In this document: in pieces, positions 3,823-56,454 of the stretch
How positions within the stretch are numbered: position 1 is the first letter of the stretch
How the letters are laid out: every line of letters starts with the position of its first letter
Source of the DNA: an uncultured Nitrospiraceae bacterium
GTDB taxonomy: Bacteria > Nitrospirota > Thermodesulfovibrionia > Thermodesulfovibrionales > SM23-35
Assembly (NCBI GenBank): GCA_963727775.1
Contig: CAVSHB010000001.1
Span: 288,001 to 352,000 of the forward strand
Reading direction: 5' to 3'
Length of the DNA: 64,000 bases
Translations under genes and position numbers: made by a program
Notes under the pieces: model-generated
The model's database searches: none
Told to the model about the DNA's origin: nothing
Seen by the model: only the letters and a program-made list of their open reading frames with translations

Positions 3823-5114
3823 ATGGAACAAGTAGATGGTATCAGACTTAGGGAGTTTCGACAAGTCAAGAAAGAGATACGTGGCTCCGACCAGTATTTG
3901 ATCGTCGGCATCGACGTGGCCAAAGAGAGGCACAATGCCTTTTTCGGCACGGCTAACGGTAAAACGCTGCACAAGGGAGTGATCTTTGACAACACGATTG
4001 AAGGATTTGAGAAACTGCTGACGCTGACAGAAGCACTTAAGGTTCAACATAACTTTACGAAGGCGGTCTTCGTCTTGAGCCCACAGCTAATTACCATAAG
4101 CCTTTGGGAGAGCATCTCATTAAGTGCGGGCATATGGTTGTTTTGTTATCGGGGGCGGCAGTAAAAAACAACCGACCGCTTCTGGATGGCAGATGGGACA
4201 AGCACGACACTAAGGATTCCGCAAACGTAGCCGACCTCATCTGTCAGGGGAAATTCCTCTACTATGAGTACCCGGACCCGAAGATGCAGGATCTGAGGAA
4301 TCTCCTTTCCTTAAAGAGACGACTCAAGAAAGAGGAGCACAGTATCCGGGTTCGCATCCGCAATCAGCTTCTGGCTCAGTATTTCCCTGAGATGGATCGG
4401 CATTTCGGCCCGGCAGTGAGCCTGGCCGTAGTCGGACGCTGTCTTAATCCCTCGGTAATCGCGGGGATGGAATTCGATGAATTCCGCAGGCATGTTGCCA
4501 TCAGCAGGATGAATATTGCCCAACAAAAGCTGTTGCATACAATTTGGCAGATAGCCCCTGAGTCCATTGGATGTTATGTAGGGGACGTAGTACCGTTCGA
4601 GGCGAAGGTGATGGTATCGAAGCTTAATCAGGTGCGAGAGACGATCAAAGAGGTGGAAGATAAAATAGAGGATATGTGCCTACAGTTTCCGGAATACCCA
4701 TGCCTTTTGAGTATCCCAGGCTTTGGGCCGGATGTTTCCTCAAAGGTCCTGGGAGCGATAGGTAATCCCTTTCGCTTTACGAGCTATAAGCAGATCCTGA
4801 AGATGGCTGGCTTCGATCTTTGCGCGGAACGCAGTGGAAAGGCTTCAAACGGCGCAACGCCGGTTATCTCCAAGCAAGGGAAAGCTGATCTTCGATATGC
4901 CTTGTATCAGGCTGCTTTCATCGCTTCCCATCATAACAAAGCCTTTATGACTTATTACACCAACAAGCTTAGAGGCAGACAGAGAGAAAAAGGAATCAGC
5001 ACGAAGATGCATGTTAAGCTGGCCGCAAAGCTCCTGGTTATTGCATGGACCCTGATGAAAAAGAAGGAGCTATTCGATCCAAAATATTTTAATAGGGAGG
5101 ATACTACAATATAG
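3823..5114 (+). pseudogene. IS110 DEDD recombinase, frameshifted
   Basis: GIDVAK, KHDTKD, ERSGK motifs; 1-bp deletion near 4072 relative to copy B (FGLEPT region). Confidence 0.9.
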
Positions 5115-5360
5115 GTCTGATCGAAATAATTCAACTGGGGGCTTCCTGTGAAGCTGTTTCTGTTCCAAGAGCCCTAAAAAATTACTTTGATGCGGAGAGC
5201 CCGAGAATAAGCGTTGAGGCTGAATGACCTCGTGAATGACAATACAGGGCCTCTCACTGAACTTGAGAATTTGGATAAAGGATGATGGGCGGTCCCGCAT
5301 TGCGGAACATGCCGGATAAACGTAACGATAAGAAATCAGGTTCGCTTTAAGTGAGAAAAA
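5115..5360 (+). ncRNA. Putative bridge RNA/seekRNA of IS110 copy A (boundaries approximate)
   Basis: Scaffold conserved with copy B; GAATAAGCGT (5205-5214) equals the left flank and GAATGAC (5234-5240) is the reverse complement of the right flank. Confidence 0.8.
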
Positions 5361-5489
5361 GCATCACAGAATTACTCCGTCGTTCGCAAAAACGAAATAG
5401 GAGGGCTTTGCCCTTTAAACGGGTCAACAAGCAACCTTATTAATTTTTATAGACTATTTTTTTTATTGACAGGAGGCACTATAGGATGT

Positions 5490-5525
5490 CATTCCGCTGC
5501 GAAGTTGCGGAATAACACTTATTCG
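5490..5525. repeat. Right part of palindromic target repeat (left part at 3672-3687)
   Basis: Reconstructed CGAATAAGCGTCATTCCGC-TGCGAAGTT-GCGGAATAACACTTATTCG hairpin; second copy at 50066-50108. Confidence 0.8.
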
Positions 5526-5551
5526 TTCTCGGCAATAGTGCCCTCTCTCTT

Positions 5552-6145
5552 TCAGGGCGTAACATTCACTCTGTAATACCCTTCGTCCGACCGTGGATCC
5601 CAGTTCTGTAAAAAATGGTCGAGGGCAGATGTTTTCCCTATAGGGATATGTCCATACAAAAAAGATAGCTGTTTTGCTGCCTCTGATTTTGGTGCTCCAT
5701 CCACGACGACCTTCCACATGGCGGCTGCAAGTCCGGATCTGTCCGCACCGGCCTGACAGTGTATCAAAATAGGACGAGGCGCGAATTTGAAAACCTTAAT
5801 AAGTTTATTGACTTCAGCATTATCAGGTTCTCGGTATGCCGATAGAGAGATGTCAAAGTGCGTCACATTATGCTTTGCACATGCCACTTTTTCCTCTTTA
5901 TACCATGAAGAACTGAGGTTTTCACCACGCAAATTCAGAACGCTCTTGATGTTATATTGTTTAATATAATACGCAAGCTCATCCCTGTTAAGTTGAGCCG
6001 ACCTGTAAGCTTCTCCCTGCGTGATCGGGTGAAAATTACCACGCTCCGTTACATACCAAAAATAAATTGCAGGTAAAAGAAGTAACAAAGTCAAAACTAT
6101 AATGAAATTCTTTGGTTTGCGTATCATCATCCCGCTATGTCCCAA
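5552..6145 (-). CDS. Membrane-anchored protein tyrosine/dual-specificity phosphatase family protein
   Basis: HCQAGADRSG catalytic loop, N-terminal TM segment; start uncertain. Confidence 0.85.
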   Translation of the reverse strand: MGHSGMMIRKPKNFIIVLTLLLLLPAIYFWYVTERGNFHPITQGEAYRSAQLNRDELAYYIKQYNIKSVLNLRGENLSSSWYKEEKVACAKHNVTHFDISLSAYREPDNAEVNKLIKVFKFAPRPILIHCQAGADRSGLAAAMWKVVVDGAPKSEAAKQLSFLYGHIPIGKTSALDHFLQNWDPRSDEGYYRVNVTP

Positions 6146-6174
6146 TCCCTCGTATCTATCATTCTCTTAATATA

Positions 6175-6317
6175 CTAAGGAGGTCATAAGTAAGGCCACA
6201 TAAGTTGTCATTCCCGCAAGCGAAGCGCGTCGAGAATCCTTCTGAAAACAAAGAAAGATTCCGGACAAGCCGGAATGACATGGATGCTGAACGTGGCTTT
6301 ACTAATGACCGCATTAG
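6175..6317. mobile_element. MITE with TA flanks and internal REP/RPE-like palindrome
   Basis: 23/27 terminal inverted repeat including TA flanks; internal GTCATTCC...GGAATGAC hairpin. Confidence 0.65.
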
Positions 6318-6419
6318 TAACTAAGCTCAAACATGGTCTGTCACCGATTCCCATTCCTTATCGCTTGAAATCTTTATTCCAGTTTGCCTATATTTTGTGA
6401 GGAACTGTAAAGCAATATC

Positions 6420-7448
6420 TTATTTCCCCACCACCAGGATCACAAAACTGTCTTTGATCATCGTCGGCCGCGGTCTCGATTCTCCTGGCGCTGACGCCGC
6501 TTGCGGAGCAAACTGTGCGGCAGGTAAATAGATATTGTGGGTCTTGGGATCGATCGCCATTGTGCGCGCTCCGCGTTGTGTTGCGACGGTATCGACAACC
6601 TCGAACTTGCCCGGAGACGACTCATGCATCACGGTGAGAGTGCCGTCCCCGTTAGAGCTGAAAGCCAACCCCGTCCCGGGATCGAAACCGTTTCCGTCCA
6701 CCCCTTCGCCGATCGGCACAGTGGCAATTACTTTGCCTGCCTCCGTGTCGAAAATGGCCATAATCTTATTGTGACATCCCACAAAGACCCGATGATACAC
6801 CGAATCAATTCCCATTCCTGTAGGCTCTTCGCAAGGCTTGAGTGAAGACCGCTTAGTTACCGTAAGCTTCCGGCTGTCGATTTCTACGACTTCGTTAGTG
6901 TCTTCGATATTCACGTATACCTTCCCCTTGTCATCCGCCGTCGCAAATTCCGGTTTGCCGCCGAGTGCAATCGTGGCTGCAACCTCTCCACTGAAGCCAT
7001 CGAATACCGTAGCATCCTTACTGCGGCCATTGAAATCGAATACCCGTTTTGAGGCAGGATCGTACAAAATGGCATCAGGATTTGTTCCAGTCTTCACCTG
7101 TCCAAGAACTTTCAGCGTTTTCAAATCGAAAATAGTCGCCGTATTTGCCCGCCCGTTGCTAATAAAGCCGCGATTCAACTCGGGTGCCACCGCGATTCCG
7201 TGTACGCCAGGAGTGTCGGGAATATCGCCTATCAATTTATCTGTGTCGATATCGACCACCATTACGTGGATGGACCGGGAAATGTACAGCCGCCGGGAAA
7301 CGCCATCTACAGCCAGATAGTCCCAGCCGCCTTCGCCGCCCAGTTGCAGTTTTTTGATCACATGATGCCCGGAATCCGCCGCATAGGCGACTGTGCCGAG
7401 AACCAGACCACAGAACAACAAAAGTGTTTTCAATGAAGATGTTTTCAA
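6420..7448 (-). CDS. Secreted YncE/YVTN-type beta-propeller protein
   Basis: Signal peptide; GGEGGWDYL, GVHGIA, GARTMAID motifs. Confidence 0.85.
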   Translation of the reverse strand: MKTSSLKTLLLFCGLVLGTVAYAADSGHHVIKKLQLGGEGGWDYLAVDGVSRRLYISRSIHVMVVDIDTDKLIGDIPDTPGVHGIAVAPELNRGFISNGRANTATIFDLKTLKVLGQVKTGTNPDAILYDPASKRVFDFNGRSKDATVFDGFSGEVAATIALGGKPEFATADDKGKVYVNIEDTNEVVEIDSRKLTVTKRSSLKPCEEPTGMGIDSVYHRVFVGCHNKIMAIFDTEAGKVIATVPIGEGVDGNGFDPGTGLAFSSNGDGTLTVMHESSPGKFEVVDTVATQRGARTMAIDPKTHNIYLPAAQFAPQAASAPGESRPRPTMIKDSFVILVVGK

Positions 7449-7583
7449 AAGTTACCACCTTTCGTCCGTTATTGTCCTTTTTCTTAACATAACAGTTTCC
7501 ACGGCTAATCTTCTACAATTACTCTTTTCTGAGGGAAATGTTGAGAGGAGAAAGCACCGACAAGACGGAAGGATTTTTGCTAT

Positions 7584-9620
7584 CTATAAAGATGTTTTCC
7601 CGTTAATTCCACTCCAGTGGATACTTTGATTCCTTCCCGTTCTTTTTGCCTGGTACAATGCCTTATCCGCCCTCTCGATAAGTTCTTCTTTTTTCTTAAT
7701 GTCCCCGGCACTTGTGGATATCCCGATGCTTATGGTCACGTTGAAATTATTTTCCCCGGATACAAATTTTGTGTCCATTACGGTTTTTCTCAATCTCTCG
7801 GCCATGTTCATCGCGCCTTTTTCATCGGTACCCGGCAACACTACCGCAAATTCCTCGCCCCCGTACCTTGCGGGGATGTCTATGTTTCTTATGGTCTTTT
7901 TGATCATGTCGGAGACTTTCTTCAGTACGGCGTCTCCGACCGGATGTCCATAGGTGTCATTTATCTTTTTGAAATAGTCTATGTCGATAAGGAGTAAAGA
8001 GATCGGCTCTGAAAACCTTTCAAGACGGCCGAATTCCTGCGTGAGTCTTTCCTGGAAATGTCTATGGTTGAACAGGCCTGTCAACCCGTCTGTTATCGCC
8101 AGCCGCTCAATTTCCGTGTAGAATTTGGCGTTTGCTATCGATGTCGACGCCTGATTCCCGAGGACCTCAAGGAGTTTGATCTGATGAGGGCTTATTGCGC
8201 TTGTCTTTTCCAAAAGGAGAGCAAGTATTCCCAGGAGGTCTTTTTCATATAGCATCGGGAGCACAAACACGGAGCCTGTGTTGTCCGTTTTGAAAGGCAT
8301 AATGGGAGAGCGATAGCTCCTGACATCCGAAATATAAACAGACTCTCTGTTCTTCACGGCCATATCGAGCAGTGTCCCTTTGATGTTGTATGTCTTTTTC
8401 CCGCGGGAATACAGGCCTGTCTGATATACGACCTCGAACCCTGTCCCCTGCGCCATAAAAAAGATTATCTCTGAAGGCGCTATCCTGTTTGCTCCGTCTA
8501 TCAAGCTTTGTACTATGACATCCATATTAAGTGAAGAGAGCAGTTTTGAGCTCTCCTCATTTAAAATCTTCAAAGCGGAATAGGAACGTTGTATCTGAGG
8601 GTAAACACGTTCCCTCTGCAATACCCTCATGACCTGGTTTGCGAATATCTGAAGAGTATCCATATCGACGCTGCTGAAGGCATGAAATCTTCCGCTGTCG
8701 GCAACCATAACGCCCAGGGGAAAATTCTCATCGATAACAGGCACTAATATCAGCGAAGAAATCTTGTCTTTTTTTAAATACCCCGGGTCAAGCTTTTGTC
8801 CATTCATATCTTCTGAAGAAATAAAAGATTTTCTGTCCTTAAAACAGAGATTTATCATGCCTCCTTCAGAGGGTATGATACCGCCTAATCCTTCTGTTGA
8901 GCATCTCAGCTTCAAACTGCCGCCTGATCCCGTAAAGAGGTTAACAGAATCTGCAAATACCATATTTTTCGCGACAGTAAGAAGTTCCTTGATTTCATCA
9001 TCGGGCTTGAACATCGACTCCAGGTAATCGGACACAATTTTTTCATTACTGAACAATTTTGTTTCTGCCTCCATGTCCTGATCTTTTTCCGCTTCTTCTG
9101 CGCCGGACAGCGGCGCTGCCAGGAGTTCTTTTTTGGTCCTGGTTTTGAGAAGTAAGGATAGGCCCGCGGTCACTGCCAATGACGCGACGAAGGCAGTCTC
9201 TTCAAAGCGCGTCATCTTGTTTAAAAAATTGTTTATCTCAAGGAAAGGAATGAAGATCAGAAGCGAGAGTACGGTCCTATGCCCGTAGAATGCAGCAAGA
9301 CATACCATAAACGGGAAATAGACTATCCTTAACCACGGCATGGCAAATGCCTGGATAATGCCGGCGAGCAACAGCGATAAGGAAAGGAGGAATTGCAGTG
9401 AATATTTTTTTTCTTTTTTTAAGAAGTAAAAGGCGGAACATACGGAGATCGTAGCGGAGCTGAAGACAAACCACGGGACTTGTCTTTTTAAAGGAAATTC
9501 GAATAATAATCCGAGATAGGTGAGAAAGAGAAGGAGAAACGGAAGCCAGCTTTTTATCCGGAAGCCCTGCCTCTTTTTATCTCCTCTTCCCTGAAGTATT
9601 TTCTGTACAATATTTCCCAC
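7584..9620 (-). CDS. Membrane-bound GAF-GAF diguanylate cyclase (start uncertain)
   Basis: N-terminal TMs, two GAF-like regions, TDGLTGL, DIDYFK and RYGGEEF motifs. Confidence 0.9.
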   Translation of the reverse strand: MGNIVQKILQGRGDKKRQGFRIKSWLPFLLLFLTYLGLLFEFPLKRQVPWFVFSSATISVCSAFYFLKKEKKYSLQFLLSLSLLLAGIIQAFAMPWLRIVYFPFMVCLAAFYGHRTVLSLLIFIPFLEINNFLNKMTRFEETAFVASLAVTAGLSLLLKTRTKKELLAAPLSGAEEAEKDQDMEAETKLFSNEKIVSDYLESMFKPDDEIKELLTVAKNMVFADSVNLFTGSGGSLKLRCSTEGLGGIIPSEGGMINLCFKDRKSFISSEDMNGQKLDPGYLKKDKISSLILVPVIDENFPLGVMVADSGRFHAFSSVDMDTLQIFANQVMRVLQRERVYPQIQRSYSALKILNEESSKLLSSLNMDVIVQSLIDGANRIAPSEIIFFMAQGTGFEVVYQTGLYSRGKKTYNIKGTLLDMAVKNRESVYISDVRSYRSPIMPFKTDNTGSVFVLPMLYEKDLLGILALLLEKTSAISPHQIKLLEVLGNQASTSIANAKFYTEIERLAITDGLTGLFNHRHFQERLTQEFGRLERFSEPISLLLIDIDYFKKINDTYGHPVGDAVLKKVSDMIKKTIRNIDIPARYGGEEFAVVLPGTDEKGAMNMAERLRKTVMDTKFVSGENNFNVTISIGISTSAGDIKKKEELIERADKALYQAKRTGRNQSIHWSGINGKTSL

Positions 9621-29486: not shown

Positions 29487-29566
29487 TGGATATTCCTCTC
29501 AGTTCGGACACCTTATTTTTTGAGCTAAGCCATCACTCACCCTTGGCCCCGGACTTCTGGCCGTAC
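29487..29566. repeat. IS3-like end remnant; inverted copy of 32367-32442; 5' exon of the intron
   Basis: TGGATATTCC..CAGTTCGGACACCTTATTTTTTGAGCTAAGCCATCAC shared in inverted orientation. Confidence 0.75.
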
Positions 29567-31526
29567 GTGCGCCACGAGGCTGCACAGAAGATGAGGGAAG
29601 GCCCCTCGGAGTCGGCTTGCAGGAGCAGGCTCCAAACCACCTTAAGCTGCATCTGTTAAGAGCAGGTGTGGTGAGCGTTAAGGAAAAGGCACTGGGAAAA
29701 GTGTCAGGTATGAATCAGCAGAGATGAACGCAAGTGAACCACTGATGAGGTGTCGAAAGAAGTCAGGCGACGTCGAAACTGGTGACGTACGGCATGCCAG
29801 AATAAGCCCGAGAGAAACCTGTTTACTGACCGGGCGGCGTCCGGCATAAAGGTGGCATGACTCTGATTCAGGCTTTTGTGGGGAACGTGGGAAGCTGTGC
29901 ACTGATGTAAAGGGAGAAATCCAAATGGAGGTCCCATGAGGATGAGAGTACCGATGCGGGGCACAGCGACGGAGTAGCCCGTAGTAGTGATGAAGACTCG
30001 TAATGGAGTTGGAGCAAAGGGGCTACATTGTTCAGCTTTATTAAATGGTCAACCATTTGATGGGAGGAGCTATTGAGTAAAGCAAAGCCGTTTAGTATTT
30101 CCAAACAAGTAGTGCTGGATGCCTTTAAGCGTGTAAAGGCAAACAAAGGTGTTGCCGGAGTAGACGGGGAGTCGATTGCAGAGTTTGAGAAGGCCCTCAA
30201 AAGCAATCTCTATAAGCTCTGGAATCGGATGTCATCAGGGAGCTATTTCCCGCCACCGGTTCTTACTGTTGAGATACCGAAGGACAATGGAGGTATACGG
30301 TCTCTTGGGATACCAACGGTAGCAGACAGGATTGCGCAGATGGTGGTAAAGCTGTATCTGGAGCCTGAAGTGGAGCCGCACTTTCACCCAGACTCCTACG
30401 GGTACAGACCTGGGAAATCGGCAGTGGAGGCAGTAGGGGTAGCTCGACAGAGGTGCCGGAAGTACGGCTGGGTTGTGGATTTGGATATTAAAGGATTCTT
30501 TGATAATCTGAACCACGAGTTGGTGATGCGTGCAGTGCGCAAGCATACCAACTGCAAGTGGATACTGCTCTACATTGAGCGCTGGCTGAAAGCCCCCGCT
30601 CAACTACGGGACGGGACTCTTGCAAGTCGGGATAAAGGCACGCCCCAAGGGTCATTATCCAAAGCTTTTGATAAGGCGGAGTAATCTCGCCCCTACTGTC
30701 GAATATCTATCTTAACGAGGTGGATAAGATGCTGGAGAAGGCGAAAATCGTAACGAGCAAATCTGGTTTTACCCATGTCGAATATGCTCGTTTTGCGGAT
30801 GACCTTGTGGTACTCGTAGATGGGTATCGCCGCTGGGACTGGCTGGTAGAGAGGGTATATCGGCGACTTCTTGAGGAGTTCGCAAGAGTTGATGTAACAG
30901 TCAACGAAGAAAAGACACGACTGGTAGACCTGATGAAAGGAGAGAGCTTCAGCTTTCTGGGATTCGACATTCGGAGTGTCCGAACACTGAGTGACAAATC
31001 AGGAGTGCTTATCACGCCAAGGATGAAAGCGCGGACGACCCTTTTGCATAACCTCAAGGAAATCTTCCAGCGCTTCATATCGCAACCAGTGGGCCGGGTG
31101 ATAGAACTGATCAACCCGAAACTCCGGGGCTGGGTTAACTACTTTAGGGTGGGACATTCCAGCAGGTGTTTTCAGTACGTAAAAGATTGGGTGGAGAAGA
31201 AGATACGGCGGCATCTTATGAGGGCTCGAAAACGGGGAGGCTTTGGCTGGGACAGGTGGAGTAGAGACTGGTTTTACGGGCATCTTGGGCTTTATGCCGA
31301 TTATAAGGTGAGGTATTACCGTGGACTCGAAAGCGCTGCCAGCGGATAGGCATCATAACCCTTGAGGAGAAGCCAATAGGAAAGCGTAGTGCGGGAAATC
31401 CGCACGCTGCGTTTGACGTGGCAGGGAATGGAGAAGTGCCATGGCGAACCTAAACGGGCACGAAACTGGAAACGGTGGATACAGCCAAGGGGAGACCTAC
31501 GGTAACTCGCCATTCTTTGACCCTAC
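29567..31526 (+). mobile_element. Group II intron (chimeric)
   Basis: 5' GTGCG; EBS1/EBS2 pair with the 5' exon; domain V AAAGCGTAGTGCGGGAAATCCGCACGCTGCGTTT at 31381; 3' end GACCCTAC. Confidence 0.9.
30073..31349 (+). pseudogene. ltrA: Group II intron reverse transcriptase/maturase, broken at GTPQG
   Basis: GIPTVADR, DLDIKGFFD, GTPQG, RFADD, LRGWVNYF; 26 extra bp near 30650 shift the frame. Confidence 0.9.
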
Positions 31527-31584
31527 TGACGAGGGGGAGCTGGAGATAGAGCGTATTTGCCACTACGCCAGCTCTCTACTCTAT
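31527..31584 (+). mobile_element. 3' remnant (end of domain V plus domain VI) of a second, host group II intron
   Basis: TGACGAGGGGGAGCTGGAG...CCAGCTCTCTACTCTAT stem with bulged A and AY end. Confidence 0.7.
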
Positions 31585-31708
31585 AGACAGTGAGATATGT
31601 CTTAACCCGCTCAAAATCTCTATTTCTATGTGAACTGCGGTGCTTCACGGCGACTCGTTGGTGCGTTGAGTACAAGGAAGAATTGTATGTTCAGATCTGC
31701 AGAATTCT

Positions 31709-31942
31709 TCATGCACACTGGTGCCCAGTTTTTTTGACATACTCTCTCAAGGCATCGTTCATGAGTGTCTGATATCCGGATTTCTTTTCCGTAGCCAGTT
31801 TCTTGAAAAACAACAGAATGTCATTATCAAGTCTTATGGTCGTGGAAATCTTTTTGGGTCTATAAAACCTACCCCTTATTCCTTTTGAAAAGTCATACTC
31901 CTCTTTGAGTTCAAATGTTTCTTTCTTATCCAATTGTTTCAT
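31709..31942 (-). CDS. brnA: BrnA-family antitoxin
   Basis: EEYDFSKG, TIRLDNDI and GYQTLMNDAL motifs. Confidence 0.88.
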   Translation of the reverse strand: MKQLDKKETFELKEEYDFSKGIRGRFYRPKKISTTIRLDNDILLFFKKLATEKKSGYQTLMNDALREYVKKTGHQCA

Positions 31943-32216
31943 ATTGTTTCACCTCCTTTTTTGTTGCTTTCCTTGCATTTATTATTCTTATGATTTCATC
32001 AGCATTCTCTGTTAAGTAGTACAAATGTCCCACTACAATAATACTTCCTTTTCTTAGACTGCCAACAGTAATCCATCTCTCATCGAAATAATCGAATCTT
32101 TTGTCCAGAATGGATACATGGAGAGGATCATCAAATACCTCTGCTACATAATCGAATGATATGCCATGCTTTCTTATGTTCTCTTTATTCTTATTTGCAT
32201 CCCATTTAAATTCCAT
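31926..32216 (-). CDS. brnT: BrnT-family ribonuclease toxin
   Basis: MEFKWD..K...NIRKHGISF and IRIINARKAT motifs. Confidence 0.9.
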   Translation of the reverse strand: MEFKWDANKNKENIRKHGISFDYVAEVFDDPLHVSILDKRFDYFDERWITVGSLRKGSIIVVGHLYYLTENADEIIRIINARKATKKEVKQYETIG

Positions 32217-32366: not shown

Positions 32367-32442
32367 GTACGGCCAGAAGACCGGTGCTATGGGTGATGGC
32401 TTAGCTCAAAAAATAAGGTGTCCGAACTGCGCGGAATATCCA
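32367..32442. repeat. IS3-like end remnant; unoccupied intron target
   Basis: Inverted copy of 29487-29566, ending CA. Confidence 0.75.
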
Positions 32443-50496: not shown

Positions 50497-51789
50497 CTAT
50501 ATTTGGATATCCCCCTTATTGAGATATTTTGGATCGAATAGCTCCTTCTTTTTCATCAAGGTCCATGCGATAACCAAAAGCTTTGCGGCTATCTTTACAC
50601 GCATCTTCGTACTAATTCCCTTTTCCCTCTGCCGACCTCTGAGCTTATTGGTGTAATAAATCGTAAAATCTTTGTTATGAAAGGAAGCGATTAGAGCAGC
50701 CTGATATAAGGCGTAGCGAAGATCGGCTTTCCCTTGTTTGGAGATTACCGGCGTTACGCTGTTTGAAGTCTTTCCGCTTCGCTCCGCGCAAAGGTCGAAA
50801 CCAGCCATCTTCAGGACCTGCTTGTCGCTCGTAAAGCGAAAGGGATTACCTATCGCCCCGAGAACCTTTGATGAGACATCCGGCCCAAAGCCAGGGATAC
50901 TCAAAAGGCATGGGTATTCCGGAAACTGTAGGCACATATCCTCTATTTTATCTTCCACCTCTTTGATCGTCTCTCGCACCTGATTAAGCATGGATACCAT
51001 CACCTTCGCCTCGAACGGCACTGCGTCTCCTACATAACATCCAATGGAATCAGGGGCTATCTGCCAGATCGCCTGCAGCAGCTTTTGTTGGGCAATATTC
51101 ATTCTGCTGAGGGCAACGTGCCTGCGGAATTCATCGAATTCCATCCCGGCGATCACCGAGGGATTAAGACAGCGGCCGACTACGGCCAGGCTCACCGCTG
51201 GGCCGAAGTGGCGGTCCATTTCAGGGAAATACTGGGCCAGAAGCTGATTGCGGATGCGAACCCGGAGGCCATGTTCCTCTTTCTTGAGTCGTCTCTTTAA
51301 GGAAAGGAGATTCCTCAGATCCCGCATCTTCGGATCCGGATATTCATAGAATAGGAATTTCCCTTGGGAAATGAGGTCGGCTACGTTAGAGGAATCCTTG
51401 GTGTCGTGCTTATCCCATCTGCCATCCAGAAGCGTGCGGTTGTTTTTTACTGCCGTCCCCGCTACCAAAACAACCATATGCCCACACTTAATAAGATGCT
51501 CTCCCAGAGGCTTATGGTAATTGGCTGTGGGCTCAAGACCAAAGACCACCTTTGTAAGGTCATGCTGGACCTTAAGCGCTTCTGTCAGCGTCAGCAGTTT
51601 CTCGAATCCTTCAATCGTGTTGTCAAAGATCACTCCCTTGTGCAGCGTTTTGCCGTTAGCCGTGCCGAAAAAGGCATTGTGCTTCTCTTTAGCCACGTCG
51701 ATGCCGATGATCAAATACTGATCGGAGCCACGTATCTCTTTCTTGACTTGTCGAAACTCCCTAAGTCTGATACCATCTACTTGTTCCAT
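50497..51789 (-). CDS. IS110 DEDD recombinase, intact
   Basis: GIDVAK, LEPT, KHDTKD and ERSGK motifs. Confidence 0.95.
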   Translation of the reverse strand: MEQVDGIRLREFRQVKKEIRGSDQYLIIGIDVAKEKHNAFFGTANGKTLHKGVIFDNTIEGFEKLLTLTEALKVQHDLTKVVFGLEPTANYHKPLGEHLIKCGHMVVLVAGTAVKNNRTLLDGRWDKHDTKDSSNVADLISQGKFLFYEYPDPKMRDLRNLLSLKRRLKKEEHGLRVRIRNQLLAQYFPEMDRHFGPAVSLAVVGRCLNPSVIAGMEFDEFRRHVALSRMNIAQQKLLQAIWQIAPDSIGCYVGDAVPFEAKVMVSMLNQVRETIKEVEDKIEDMCLQFPEYPCLLSIPGFGPDVSSKVLGAIGNPFRFTSDKQVLKMAGFDLCAERSGKTSNSVTPVISKQGKADLRYALYQAALIASFHNKDFTIYYTNKLRGRQREKGISTKMRVKIAAKLLVIAWTLMKKKELFDPKYLNKGDIQI

Positions 51790-52187
51790 AGAAACCTCCT
51801 GTCAAAAGAATTTTGTTTCTCCATAAACTTATTCTTACAGGAGGTTTCTATTTTTTAATAGCTATAAAATTAGTCTCCCTTATGATTGAATGGGGAAGTT
51901 TGATCTTATGCCATTTCTATATATAACTAAGCCGGTGCGCCGGATATGGGGATTCGATTAATTCTCCCGGAACTTTTTCTATCGAAGAGGATATGGTTTA
52001 TGGAGCATCTGTCTTATTTTGATCTGCATGAGATCATCCTGATACGAAAATTGAGGCTGAGATTGCGACCATTGCAGCTGGATAGTATCCCAAGGTCTGA
52101 TTTCAGACAATAGGGGAGCATAGCGAAACAGGATGCTGTTTTCGCAGGTTGATAGAGCTATGATTTTTGAGCTATCGCCGGTGTGCA

Positions 52188-52436
52188 TCAGTATCGATCC
52201 GGAGGGCTATTGCACCTGGAAGGGAGCAAATACTCAATCGTGACCATTGTGCCCTTCTTGCAAACCGGGCAGGTATTGATATCGATACCGTAGATTCTGA
52301 GCAACTGATCCTGCCAGGTCTCTGATTTTTCTTCTTCTTCTTCTTTTGTTTCGGTTTTACAACTGCCGATGAGCTTACGGCATAGCGCGATGTTGTCTTT
52401 ACGCTTTCTGTTTGCGAGGAGTCCGAAGTGCCTGAT
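52188..52436 (-). pseudogene. IS91-family transposase C-terminal fragment
   Basis: IRHFGLLANR...CPVCKKG continues FVRIR from the other side of the RIT. Confidence 0.88.
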
Positions 52437-52535
52437 TTATGTTATATATTCACTTATGTTGCGTCGTTTGTGAAAGGCCTTGTTATTGCACAATGTCATC
52501 GTTAACGACACAACATAAGTAAATCCCTCTTCGGG

Positions 52536-53531
52536 TTAAAGTGCTTTTAAGAATGCCATCAACCCCGGCTGATCTTTCCACCGTCTTGATTGCTCTGAAG
52601 TAAATATCTCACAGTGGGCAAGTGCCTTTGCCTTCATTTCGAGATCGACCTCAGCATAGACATTTGTGGTATCTAGCGACACATGCCCCAGCCATGCACG
52701 GATTGTATTAATATCCACACCTGCGCGAAGAAGGTGAACTGCGCAGGAATGACGAATTATATGTGCACTGACTCTTTTCGTTCTCATTGAGGGGACTTTG
52801 TTGCTTGCTTTGATAACATAACGCCTAACGAGGGCATGAATGCCGAAGCGAGTGATTGTCTGCCCCCGACAGTTGAGGAAAACCTGTTCGCTATCCTGGC
52901 GATCGGCAATGAGAGTGCGTAAAGTATTGGCTGTTAAAGACCATAAAGGACAGATTCGTGTCTTGCCTCCCTTGCCTTTAATCTTGACTGAAAGCGAATA
53001 ATCCAGGTCGAGATCGTCTACAGTCATATTCGCAGCTTCATGGGCGCGGGCGCCAGTATTGTAAAGAAAAAGAAGTACGGCATAATCTCTAAAGCCTTGT
53101 TTGGTGGAAGTAACGGGAGCATTAAGCAGGGCATCCATTTCTTGTTTGTCGAGATAAGACATCGCAGCCTTTGCAGTTTTTTTGAAAGGGATAGCTCTGA
53201 TCTGTCCACACCAGATGATGTGTTCCGGACATCGTTCGCCGATAAAACCGGCGAGGGCGTGAATTGCGGCAAGGCGCTGGTTGCGAGTGGCTATAGAACA
53301 GGATCGATGCTCCTCTATATAAAGCAGAAAAAGACGAATTACCTCAGGGGATATATGCTCTACAAGCAGCTTGTCTATAGGTTTTCTGACCTTCTCAGCG
53401 ATGAAAGGGAGCATCAAGGCCAGAGCATCGCGATAACTGGATTGTGTATTTAGCGACAGATTACGCTCTTCCACCAAGTATTCCATAAGGAAGCGTCGCA
53501 CCCAATATCCGATAGAAGTTACGTTAGACAT
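52536..53531 (-). CDS. RIT tyrosine recombinase C
   Basis: YNTGAR, HIIRHS and WLGHVSLDTTNVY motifs. Confidence 0.92.
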   Translation of the reverse strand: MSNVTSIGYWVRRFLMEYLVEERNLSLNTQSSYRDALALMLPFIAEKVRKPIDKLLVEHISPEVIRLFLLYIEEHRSCSIATRNQRLAAIHALAGFIGERCPEHIIWCGQIRAIPFKKTAKAAMSYLDKQEMDALLNAPVTSTKQGFRDYAVLLFLYNTGARAHEAANMTVDDLDLDYSLSVKIKGKGGKTRICPLWSLTANTLRTLIADRQDSEQVFLNCRGQTITRFGIHALVRRYVIKASNKVPSMRTKRVSAHIIRHSCAVHLLRAGVDINTIRAWLGHVSLDTTNVYAEVDLEMKAKALAHCEIFTSEQSRRWKDQPGLMAFLKAL

Positions 53532-54468
53532 GATTCACGTCCGATAGAACATAATGTTCAAAACGCAAATTTGCTTCCCGCAAAAGATCAGGAGTCATGC
53601 TCAAATAGCATTGGGTCTCCGCCACATCAGTATGGCCCAAATAGGTTGATAATTGAGGCAGCAAGCGCTGGACATCAGCGCCTTCCCGGTACCAGGCTTC
53701 AAGACGGTGAACTGAAAAAGTGTGACGAAGGTCGTGAATCCTGGGATAGTATCGAGTGCCGTCCCGGCGAGGCATCCCGGATAGGTTTCGCAAACGACTG
53801 AAAGTTTTTTGCATGCGGCCATAGGATAAAGCGTGGCCAGTGCGTGTGGCAAAAAAGGCGGAATCTTCCTTAAGTCGGCAGGGCAACAGTCGCCTTTTTC
53901 CCAGATAGGAGTCAAGGTGGTCAGTTAACCGAGGGCCGATGGGTACGAGACGTGTCTTATAGAATTTGGTATTGCGCACTGTGATAAGGCTATCCGAAAC
54001 GTTAACATCAGCAATCGTTAGAGAAAGCGCTTCGCTGATACGAAGGCCTGTTCCATAAAGGGTAAGCAAAATGGTTCGGAAGGTGGTTGCCTGAAGAGGA
54101 CTTATTGGGGATTTAAGCGAGTTGGTAGCGGAAAGGAGGCGGTGCAGTTCCTCGGTGGTGTAAATATATGGTTCCAGAGTCGCCGGACGTTTAGGTACCA
54201 TCTTTGGAAGCGGAGACTTGTCGATATGACCATGGGTCAGAGCAAAGCGATAGAAACCACAGAGGACTTCATACTTCCGGTGCCAGAAGGTAGTGATCGG
54301 ACCTTCACCTGCAAGGAATGCTGCTGCAGTATCGGGATTAACTTCTTCGATCTCTATATTGCCCATAGCTTTGCAAAAAGATCTGAGTACCACAGCATCA
54401 GACCGGTAACACATACCAATGGACTGTTTTAGCGACACATACTCGGTAACAAGTTCTGAGAGTTTCAT
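53524..54468 (-). CDS. RIT tyrosine recombinase B
   Basis: TGLRISE, TKFYKTRLVP, HDLRHTF and LSTYLGH motifs. Confidence 0.92.
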   Translation of the reverse strand: MKLSELVTEYVSLKQSIGMCYRSDAVVLRSFCKAMGNIEIEEVNPDTAAAFLAGEGPITTFWHRKYEVLCGFYRFALTHGHIDKSPLPKMVPKRPATLEPYIYTTEELHRLLSATNSLKSPISPLQATTFRTILLTLYGTGLRISEALSLTIADVNVSDSLITVRNTKFYKTRLVPIGPRLTDHLDSYLGKRRLLPCRLKEDSAFFATRTGHALSYGRMQKTFSRLRNLSGMPRRDGTRYYPRIHDLRHTFSVHRLEAWYREGADVQRLLPQLSTYLGHTDVAETQCYLSMTPDLLREANLRFEHYVLSDVNHV

Positions 54469-55706
54469 TCCAGCCCTCCCATATCAAACTTAGCTACCTC
54501 GCGAAGACCTGACAGATTCACCTTGGCATAGATCCTCGTGGAGAGAGAACTTCGATGCCCTAGGTGATCGCCGACCTCCTTGAGGGAGAAGCCCTCGGCA
54601 ACCAGGTGGGCGGCGCACGCATGCCGCAATGAGTGGGGCCCATGATGGTGAGTGCGTATCCCGAGCTTCACCATTCTGTTACTGACCACAGGATAAAGTG
54701 CTCCTAATGAAAAAGGACGATATGGGGGCAAGAGAGTGAGAAATATCTCTCGATATGAAGAGTGGGGACGCACTTCCTGTAAATAGCGGATTATCGCGTT
54801 GCCTACTATTGGGATCAATGGGTATGTTTGTCTTCCTCTCAGCTTAACTCGGGGTACCGACATAAGTCTCTGTTCCCAGTCGATATCGTCAAGCCTGAGA
54901 GTTGCTACCTCAGTTGATCTCAACCCATAGATCGCAAAAAGCATCACGATGGGTTTGTCTCGTATGTCACTGGCTTGATCTGTCTCCATGCTCTCTATCA
55001 AGAGTCTCACGTTTCCCCAAGATGGTCCCGACGGCAATTGTTCTTGGGCAAAGATACGAGGGCCACGTATATCGGGGGCGATTGAAGACGAACACCACCC
55101 CCGTGAAGCCGCGTACTTGAAAAAGGCCTTCAGCGCGGTCGCCATGTGTTTAACCGATATGCGACAATTGCCCTTGTCACCGTAATGGGTAAGAAACGCG
55201 TCAATATCTTTGAGGCAAACGGCTGAGATATCACAACTCCGAGTGCCATACCAGCGTAGAAACCGTTCAACGTAAGAGCAGTTCCCTCGGATAGTCTGAG
55301 AAGTGAACCCTCGTTCGTTCTTCATCCATGTCCTGAAATCTTCAAGCAAATGACCAAACGGAATGGAAGTATCTTCTCTCCAACAGCCCAAAAAACGTAG
55401 CCACGATCTTGCTGCATTGACAAAGCGACTGCGAGTACAGTGCGGATTAAGCGCTTTTCCCCAATATCGTTCCCGTTCTGTCCATCCTCGGGCGACAGCT
55501 TCGACCTGATTCAGGGTTACTCCGTTTTCAAAAGAAATACGTAGCTTCTTTGCGACCCATAAAAGTTCTCGCGCAATGTTCTGTAAAGTCGAGAGAGAAT
55601 ATCCTTCTTGCTCGCAGTGCTTAAGATAACGCTCCCTCTCCTCTTTGTACGGGGCCTTCTTGTGACGGGATAGAATTGAGAGTTTTGTGTAAAGCTTTTC
55701 AAACAT
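54465..55706 (-). CDS. RIT tyrosine recombinase A
   Basis: YGLRSTE, HSLRHA and LGHRS..STRIYAK motifs. Confidence 0.92.
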   Translation of the reverse strand: MFEKLYTKLSILSRHKKAPYKEERERYLKHCEQEGYSLSTLQNIARELLWVAKKLRISFENGVTLNQVEAVARGWTERERYWGKALNPHCTRSRFVNAARSWLRFLGCWREDTSIPFGHLLEDFRTWMKNERGFTSQTIRGNCSYVERFLRWYGTRSCDISAVCLKDIDAFLTHYGDKGNCRISVKHMATALKAFFKYAASRGWCSSSIAPDIRGPRIFAQEQLPSGPSWGNVRLLIESMETDQASDIRDKPIVMLFAIYGLRSTEVATLRLDDIDWEQRLMSVPRVKLRGRQTYPLIPIVGNAIIRYLQEVRPHSSYREIFLTLLPPYRPFSLGALYPVVSNRMVKLGIRTHHHGPHSLRHACAAHLVAEGFSLKEVGDHLGHRSSLSTRIYAKVNLSGLREVAKFDMGGLE

Positions 55707-55843
55707 GACCGGACCTCCTCTAATAGAGACTTTCCAGCCATATAACGGCAATTACTTATGTGTTGTCAAATCAAAAATAATCATTGCAAATTAAGAAAAT
55801 TGACTGACTTCACAACATAAGTGAATACATAACATAAATCAGG

Positions 55844-55863
55844 TTATGTGTTTAAGCACATAA
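55844..55863. repeat. 20-bp palindrome beside the RIT end
   Basis: TTATGTGTTTAAGCACATAA between ATCAGG and CCTGAT. Confidence 0.85.
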
Positions 55864-56454
55864 CCTGATGCGCACAAATCGATGCGGAAGCACATGAAGA
55901 AGGAACCTTCTTATGAACTCATCGGCCTTAAGAGTCATGATCTTTTGTTTATCACCATCGGCATAGTCCCGCCAGCGGAAGGAAACATTGCCGTCTTCAA
56001 CGTTTAGGACACGATTATTACTGATAGCAATCCTGTGGGTATATCTGCCCAGATACTTGAGGACACCCTCGGCGCCGTCAAAAGGCGGCTTGCAATATAC
56101 AACCCACTTCTTATGGTAGAACTGTCCTCTGAACACCTCAAAGGTTCCGGGGTCTTTAAGATGACGGATACCGCCAGGGAAGATAAGATCACCTGATTCA
56201 AACCTGTTTTTGAGATGGTCCAGGAACTTGCCCCTGAACAATGAGGACATAACCCTTACAGGCATGAAAAAACCTTTCCTGCACGATACCCAATGTTTTC
56301 CATCAGGTGACAATCCGCCGCCGGGTACGACACAGTGAATATGGGGATGATCCATAAGGTTTTGTCCCCAGGTGTGAAGGATGCCGATAAAGCCTGTATG
56401 TGCGCCGAGGTGTTTCGGATTATTGGAGAGCTCCATAAGTGTCTCGGAGACTGC
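55864..56454 (-). pseudogene. IS91-family (HUH/Y2) transposase, central fragment
   Basis: LHTWG, HPHIH, YLGRYTHR and RRFLLHVLP motifs; N-terminal part deleted. Confidence 0.9.

Follow-up and report, generated by a model that had tools for sequence, protein, structure and literature searches.

A joint of putative RIT outer arms links halves of two group II intron lineages in a Nitrospiraceae genome

The genome of an uncultured Nitrospiraceae bacterium (assembly GCA_963727775.1) contains a group II intron whose reverse transcriptase (RT) gene is interrupted by a 20-bp near-palindrome set between two 6-bp codon pairs. The locus lies in a stretch of 64,000 nucleotides (nt), hereafter the window, which corresponds to C1:288001-352000 of this genome (G000; 3.43 Mb, 96.8% complete, with C1 to C4 denoting its contigs). 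The sequence CAA-GGGTCA-TTATCCAAAGCTTTTGATAA-GGCGGA-GTAATC, with the 20-mer at 30655-30674, reads exactly as an earlier note on this DNA had given it; the feature is real, and the palindrome string and its place between the two codon pairs had been correctly described. That note attributed the palindrome to a recombinase-in-trio (RIT) element, assigned the two RT halves to different introns and proposed that short RIT footprints served as the recombination sites that fused them. The locus, in which the parts of a RIT element that we call RIT-1 are named as explained below, comprises the following features:

29568..30072, plus strand: 5′ ribozyme part, lineage 1, starting GTGCG; Rfam group-II-D1D4-2 at 29593-29709, 121 bits
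30073..30654, plus strand: RT N half, lineage 1 (412-aa RT type), ending in native GGGTCA at 30649-30654 (codons G S); RVT_1 1-123
30655..30664, no strand: arm a, TTATCCAAAG, outer arm of the palindrome-bearing RIT-1 end; same 10-mer at RIT-1 left junctions
30665..30674, no strand: arm b′, CTTTTGATAA, outer arm of the simple RIT-1 end; same 10-mer at RIT-1 right junctions
30675..30680, plus strand: GGCGGA, central (crossover) region of the far-end site and GG codons of the C half, as in RIT-1 junctions
30675..31349, plus strand: RT C half and maturase domain, lineage 2 (434-aa RT type); RVT_1 122-205, GIIM
31350..31590, plus strand: 3′ ribozyme part (domains V-VI), lineage 2, ending ..CTCTACTCTAT; Rfam Intron_gpII at 31380-31526

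One arm pair of the near-palindrome is mismatched, such that the minus strand matches the 20-mer with two mismatches. Shuffles of the window yielded a mean of 0.03 matches at up to three mismatches, and 0 of 100 shuffles reached the two seen; in the whole genome the 20-mer occurs once. The scar occupies the PQG(G/S) codons of the RT, between GGGTCA and GGCGGA. The N-half open reading frame (ORF; 30073-30684) reads on into the 20-mer and ends ..GTPQGS LSKAFDKAE*, and the C half starts at 30675 in another frame, reading GGVISPLLSNIYLNEVD.., so the insert amounts to 26 bp. Pfam matches place the N half at RVT_1 positions 1-123 and the C half at RVT_1 122-205 followed by the maturase domain GIIM. 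The 26 extra bases at the PQG(G/S) codons frameshift the gene, leaving RT and GIIM domains that are present and not functional.

Comparison with related introns assigned the two halves to different lineages. Identity of the window N half to those of the fifteen best-ranked RTs (P0001-P0015; 405-435 amino acids (aa), mostly 412) is 85-91%, and the C halves of these proteins share 22-31% identity with the C half in the window. Against a set of 434-aa RTs (P0121 and others) the identities reverse, with 97% for the C half and 32-40% for the N half (P0121: 34%); the N half of P0121-type RTs is instead 97% identical to the N half that lies left of the first RIT-1 copy (C1:37111-37746). The ribozyme ends are likewise not of one type. 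The 5′ part matches Rfam D1D4-2, as does the intron copy on C4, and the 3′ part comes from a lineage whose complete representative, the intron at the first RIT-1 copy (copy A), has D1D4-4. This 3′ part is 97% identical to C2:303989-304446, and its domain V-VI match to Intron_gpII (31380-31526) stays under the gathering score of 40, at 32.5 bits.

In contigs of four other samples each half is found on its own, running on into a partner native to it, and no contig spans the joint, which has no bearing on the present assembly: the N-type sequence continues natively past 30650 into ..GGVASPLL.., and in a C-type contig the match begins at 30675, preceded by 709 unrelated bases. Intact relatives of both RT lineages carry no palindrome at this position. 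The earlier note's assignment of the halves to two lineages is borne out by the reversal of identities between the RT sets and by the differing ribozyme types; among the RTs compared, no single intact one matches both halves, and the arms of the palindrome are shared by a RIT. Judging by these comparisons, the window intron is a hybrid of lineage 1 (5′) and lineage 2 (3′), frameshifted and dead. The locus of the first RIT-1 copy (C1:37-43 kb), by the same measure, is a single lineage-2 intron split by a RIT. An insertion sequence (IS) of the IS3 family (C1:42096-43365, in locus L010) lies in the domain V-VI region of this intron, and the fragment on C2 is 97% identical to the window straight through the point of that insertion. 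Upstream of the lineage-2 intron, an extra partial D1D4-4 match (L010 1-120, G000:C1:36001-36120) suggests a further intron fragment.

RIT-1, an element of 3.5 kb, is represented in the genome by three further copies besides the scar in the window, two of them full and one cut by the start of a contig:

C1:37741-41237: first full copy (copy A locus), splitting a group II RT gene
C1:478275-481771: second full copy, 99.97% identical to the first, with the interior inverted
first 105 bases of C4 (end arms C4:64-99): partial copy, the element being cut by the contig start

Each copy splits a group II RT gene at the same codons as the window scar. In the orientation of the RT, the left junction reads ..CAG GGCGGA TTATCCAAAG CTTTGGATAA TCCGCC TTATCAAAAG (7 bp) TTATCCAAAG TAAATGC.. 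and the right junction ..GCATTTA CTTTGGATAA (7 bp) CTTTTGATAA GGCGGA GTAATC... We designate the successive parts as 6-mer X, arm a, arm a′, inverted 6-mer X′, arms b and c, the interior, and then c′, b′ and X. An integrated RIT-1 has the order flank, native 6-mer, a, a′, inverted carried 6-mer, b, 7 bp, c, interior, c′, 7 bp, b′, carried 6-mer, flank. Of this arrangement the window keeps solely the native GGGTCA, a, b′ and the carried GGCGGA, and all between a and b′ is gone.

The match of the two arms to the element is complete. Arm a is identical at 10 of 10 positions to the 10-mer that directly follows the native 6-mer at the RIT-1 left junctions (C1:37747, C1:478281 and C4:80), and arm b′ is identical at 10 of 10 positions to C1:41222 and C1:481756, where it precedes GGCGGA and an RT C half. 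Both full copies have GGCGGA at the right junction and, within the left end, its reverse complement TCCGCC. Identity of 100% with the right flank of the first copy (C1:41222-42095, 874 bp) starts at the first base of b′. Arms a′ (CTTTGGATAA) and b′ (CTTTTGATAA) are direct arms identical at 9 of 10 positions, and a′ has G in three of three RIT-1 copies. These matches identify the 20-mer as the outermost arms of two RIT-1 ends joined together, the smallest possible RIT remnant, in agreement with the RIT origin that had been proposed for the palindrome. The remnant is devoid of recombinase genes, and each of its two half sites keeps a single good arm.

RIT-1 itself has three ORFs of 411, 339 and 339 aa (C1:37866-41081), with longest-ORF overlaps of 37 and 23 nt and no other cargo, between terminal inverted repeats of 94 bp at 95.7%. 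All three products match PF00589 (Phage_integrase; E 3e-22 to 4e-30), and their best NCBIfam matches are XerC/XerD, all below the Xer equivalog cut-offs. RitA, the protein of the trio that was compared, is 36.7% identical over 98% of its length (E 2e-73) to positions 51512-52720 of plasmid pHG1 of Cupriavidus necator, which is the first gene of an annotated set of three overlapping integrase genes. Passages of PMC2864759 and PMC3414803 name pHG1 as RIT-rich. By gene content and end structure, RIT-1 is a RIT element with three Xer-like tyrosine recombinases. Since both full copies are 99.97% identical and have intact ORFs, its enzymes were probably active recently.

The junctions place RIT-1 insertion in the RT genes of group II introns, within the PQG(G/S) motif, at the pair of codons that follows PQ. 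Of the seven RVT_1 matches in the genome, four are N halves and three are C halves, each broken at profile position ~122, and none in the whole assembly is an intact RT. A scan with the first recombinase, in one genome per species, returned six loci, three in Paenibacillus and one each in Cohnella, a Nitrospiraceae metagenome-assembled genome (MAG) and a Peptococcaceae MAG. In five of the five relatives with a visible flank, the element adjoins an RT half at PQGG with the same end layout; the sixth begins at a contig end. A 50%-identical trio lies beside RT C halves on a plasmid of Bacillus sp. S3, and 4 of 120 truncated RT proteins related to the window N half end in a translated RIT end, PQGG LCKALH... 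RT genes broken at PQG by full RITs, a search for which the earlier note had suggested, are therefore found both in this genome and in its relatives, and the scar sits at the motif that the RIT lineage targets, at the same codons as in the RIT-1 copies, the relatives and the Bacillus plasmid. The native 6-mer at the RT site varies (GGCGGA, GGCGGT, GGCGGG, GGTGGA, GGGTCC and GGGTCA). Because 38 of the 120 related RTs read PQGS, GGGTCA (G S) can be taken as native in the window; the difference between the two flanking 6-mers that had been remarked on is then one between a native 6-mer on the left and one of the element-carried type on the right. A literature search joining recombinase in trio with group II intron returned no paper combining them, and a search for intron RTs interrupted by tyrosine recombinases returned unrelated papers only. 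Ten truncated RTs (P0245, P0248, P0249, P0268, P0310, P0317, P0319, P0325, P0332 and P0343) end in PQGGV(I/M/V)(T/A)P(P/R/L)TQ.., about three codons past the RIT site, and their recurrence suggests another, different insert in the RT motif.

We also searched for similar joints elsewhere. A metagenome scan with the a|b′ 20-mer, in which Paenibacillus-type variants were allowed, listed at least 122 loci, and none of these listed matches is an orphan in an RT gene. In a protein search with the translated tail, the window's own protein was the only one to have it (0 of 119 other truncated RTs). Other RT genes broken at PQG by an orphan palindrome, which the earlier note had proposed to look for, were thus absent from both sets, as was any further RT chimera at an orphan. 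Many of the at least 122 matches listed are chance occurrences in coding DNA, among them eukaryote-like RT motifs that read ..LSKAFDK.., and RIT ends of other families, located in other targets, account for 40. Four further listed matches (L061, L094, L041 and L076) have no arms on either side and lie between 6-bp direct repeats that differ at one position at most; the repeat at L061 is perfect. At L094 the 26-bp orphan lies in an IS66 transposase gene (PF03050), and removal of the 26 bases leaves a frame that is open across the joint, ..SCWAH|ARRK...

Rearranged flanks occur at RITs as well. At L042, two transposase N parts are joined head to head at the arm pair. On the Bacillus sp. S3 plasmid (L154, NZ_CP039728.1), a RIT at 4356-7810 has two simple ends and no palindrome, and is bordered on both sides by the C halves of two different intron RTs that point outwards, an arrangement such as inversion between a pair of RITs would leave. 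By these cases, RITs do bring about rearrangement of the elements that host them.

The 20+6 geometry that the earlier note had pointed out at 55844 is real too, and belongs to the end of a second RIT in the window, unrelated to RIT-1:

52431..55869, minus strand: RIT-2, inside a Y2_Tnp (IS91-like, PF04986) gene; three Phage_integrase-type ORFs of 428, 314 and 331 aa
G000:C3:215034-218465: sister copy of RIT-2

RIT-2 has inverted repeats of 44 nt at 84% and is inserted at an Ile-Arg codon pair of the Y2_Tnp gene. Its end at 55838-55869 consists of ATCAGG, a 20-bp arm pair (module 55844-55863) and CCTGAT, that is ..ATCAGG TTATGTGTTT AAGCACATAA CCTGAT, in the same layout as RIT-1. From one RIT-2 copy to the other, the slightly asymmetric arm pair is inverted along with the interior, and at C3 the outer 6-mer is ATAAGA, the synonymous native Ile-Arg, with ATCAGG carried at the inner and far-end positions. 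At RT sites the palindrome is always on the N side of the RT, whichever way the interior points. In five informative junction sets (C1:478k, GGCGGT versus GGCGGA; L019, GGTGGA versus GGCGGA; RIT-2 at C3; L116; and the window) the palindrome-side 6-mer is native and the inner and far-end 6-mers match each other. L017 is the exception, its far-end 6-mer equalling the outer one and the inner one differing. The assembly breaks at RIT-1 and RIT-2 repeats, so further copies of either may be missing from it.

Xer-type core sites consist of an arm, 6 bp and a second arm, and in CTX phage and at integron attC sites folded single-stranded DNA is integrated. The RIT unit b′-X-a has the same layout of arm, 6-bp centre and arm, which goes together with the XerC/XerD matches of the recombinases, whereas RIT-1 differs in scoring below the Xer equivalog cut-offs and the likeness to a folded site belongs to the model alone. 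An integrated copy could be read as a left half site (flank-X-a), a full inverted site (a′-X′-b) and a right half site (b′-X-flank). As a model, a circle with the junction b′-X-a-a′-X′-b would fit three constraints at once, namely the palindrome side, the joint flip and the 6-mer polarity. Such a circle could act as two inverted sites, or one of its strands could fold up into a lone site with its closed end at a|a′, and it would integrate by exchange at one edge of X. In the folded version, a single strand of b′-6mer-a-a′-6mer′-b forming a double-stranded core site closed at a|a′ would explain the palindrome side, both interior orientations and the 6-mer polarity. A hairpin-ended excision, with a cut at a|a′ and a symmetric far-end cut, was dropped, as TATTTTA inside b′ does not mirror arm a.

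We consider it likely that the orphan joint of RIT-1 outer arms came to connect two intron lineages through RIT recombination and loss of the interior. This reading builds on what is observed, namely that the arms are identical to RIT-1 ends, that the insertion point is the same and that RT and ribozyme are chimeric; the order of events and the enzyme are reconstructed from this. Two RIT-bearing introns would have recombined through their 3.5-kb RITs to give N-half(1)-RIT-C-half(2), and the interior would then have been deleted between the direct arms a′ and b′, a crossover within the first four bases producing the observed joint. Alternatively, both steps may have taken place in one inter-copy event at arms a′/b′. 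The outcome would be a 26-bp frameshifting scar in a dead hybrid intron. Routes with an a′-b′ deletion are favoured because all three RIT-1 copies have a′ with G. A large duplication by unequal exchange was rejected, since identity with copy A ends after 874 bp.

Several observations weigh against this reconstruction. Exchange within the 6-mer cannot put a beside b′, so the loss step is deduced from microhomology, and a G-to-T change in a′ or a parental variant with an a-b′ module, as at metagenome locus L101, fits equally well. Neither a reciprocal product nor a lineage-1 C half is present in the assembly. The joint is seen in the assembly alone, the best sequencing run holding 0.14 of the sampled words, and the count of second RT orphans is zero both among the metagenome matches listed and among the other truncated RTs. 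The 100% identity between the window and copy A stops exactly at the IS3 insertion of copy A, with the next 52 bases ~85% alike; the stretch of full identity is possibly a patch of gene conversion delimited by the two insertions, which blurs the history of the locus, and the stretch therefore does not date the fusion.

The principal alternative is the earlier note's own idea that the 26-bp unit is a regular footprint made by the recombinases, and that footprints or sites act as the crossover points at which introns fuse. The Rit proteins would pair the inner full site (a′-6mer-b) with the far-end half site (b′-6mer-flank) of the same or another copy, whereupon the interior would be excised and an arm pair plus 6-mer left behind. 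A parent in which the arm pair was a-b′ from the start, like L101, could yield the window joint as such a footprint. This has points in its favour: orphans of 20+6 bp with 6-bp direct repeats recur, at 4 among the at least 122 loci listed against ~0.4 expected (19/4096 per locus), and the one in the IS66 gene leaves an open frame once its 26 bp are removed; the deletion in the window starts and stops precisely where an arm begins or ends; flanks have been swapped at RIT sites in L042 and on the Bacillus plasmid; and the near identity of the RIT-1 copies and their intact ORFs speak for enzymes that were probably active recently. Yet an exchange at the 6-mer would retain a′ (CTTTGGATAA, as in three of three RIT-1 copies), whereas the window has b′ (CTTTTGATAA), and the 6-mers to be paired are oppositely oriented (TCCGCC and GGCGGA), which would favour inversion. 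The lack of a further RT orphan in the two sets that we searched also counts against it, and PMC10214605, in the parts relevant here, reports no RIT recombination experiment. The joint has no 6-bp crossover region between its arms, and the standard exchange inferred for such sites cannot make it; the proposal that short footprints served as recombination sites is not borne out, and recombination between two full RIT copies with interior loss is the simpler reading. We judge the footprint alternative unlikely. Less plausible again is an extension in which RITs of this lineage would be hyperparasites: at a single conserved codon pair they would place an Xer-type site in each group II intron of a genome, their recombinases would integrate from a single strand folded so that the 20-bp palindrome is the hairpin tip, would also make 26-bp footprints and, working in trans on full copies and footprints alike, would swap intron halves. 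If true, it would amount to natural site-specific recombination of retroelement modules and the silencing of all introns of a cell at once. Nor is the locus a productive instance of the shuffling route raised in the earlier note, the product being frameshifted, its ribozyme halves being of different Rfam types and no second RT case having been found among the metagenome matches listed or the other truncated RTs.

An artefactual origin of the joint in the assembly, through two RIT-interrupted introns mis-joined or a RIT collapsed, seems very unlikely. In its favour, RITs do interrupt contigs (C4 begins within RIT-1, and C1 stops at an end of RIT-2), the C half matches a second locus at 100% over 874 bp, and the joint is seen in the assembly only. 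However, a mis-join through the repeat would retain the 3.5-kb RIT and not a 20-bp a|b′ joint; no more than 14 bases of the joint are common to it and the true left end, and no more than 10 to it and the true right end, so that reads must contain the joint itself; and the C part in the window runs on through the 3′ end of the intron at the point where copy A has its IS3 insertion. That the 20-mer is a chance or functional hairpin unrelated to a transposon, such as a regulatory palindrome or terminator, is scarcely credible. It is a near-palindrome inside a gene, as such a hairpin might be, but both 10-mers are identical to RIT-1 end arms at the same position relative to the RT codons, the intact relatives of both RT lineages are without it and it frameshifts the gene.

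RIT-1 and RIT-2 resemble published RIT elements, as described in portions of PMC3414803 and PMC2864759, in having three adjacent overlapping tyrosine-recombinase genes of which the first is longest, long terminal inverted repeats and no cargo, in occurring as several near-identical copies per genome and in inserting into genes of other mobile elements. The targets named there are IS66 tnpA and Tn6049, compared with RT and Y2_Tnp here. Unlike those elements, the RIT-1 lineage is found at a single codon pair in the RT genes of group II introns, and the feature in the window is a 20-bp remnant that joins two host elements; the same portions of PMC3414803 and PMC2864759 describe no such orphan. 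In Tn554 and the strand-biased circularizing elements (SE), which are likewise tyrosine-recombinase transposons, no target duplication is made and 6 bp of the donor site travel along to the new one, according to sections of PMC10214605. RITs may be similar, in that one 6-mer is native and the far-end 6-mer apparently carried in the five informative junction sets, a small number from which L017 departs. They differ from Tn554 and SE in having three recombinases and no TnpC/Srap-type protein, and in an extra arm pair with an inverted 6-mer at one end. Table 1 of PMC10214605, among the parts considered, lists RIT movement and target specificity as not tested, with no transposition reproduced.

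The locus and its sister copies constrain how RITs work. They fix the positions of the arms and the 6-bp crossover and distinguish native from carried 6-mers, and they show that the palindrome flips with the interior and that scars and flank swaps occur. They also present a case in which one mobile element disables every copy of another, one codon pair being the point at which all RT genes of the assembly are split. As for the hybrid intron, it is a dead relic with no evident function, a clue to RIT mechanics and not evidence of a working shuffling system.

The 5′ exon of the lineage-1 intron is an 80-bp repeat (29487-29566) that ends ..CTTCTGGCCGTAC. It has two unoccupied copies, at window positions 32367-32442 (inverted) and at C1:1037668-1037762, both of which continue TATACACGGAGATG... 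The inverted copy lies 2.8 kb downstream and places the intron and two small ORFs between inverted repeats. Local alignment of the 3′ exon with the lineage-1 homing site scores 15-16. An empty ancestral site at the locus could not be reconstructed from 40 relatives: conservation across them is limited to the ppx-like gene downstream, at 65-70%, and the block upstream consists for the most part of multi-copy IS sequence, without synteny in five relatives. The two small ORFs, of 77 and 96 aa, overlap on the minus strand at 31709-32216, have an 84% DNA match in a relative (G022) and, by eye, look like a toxin-antitoxin pair.

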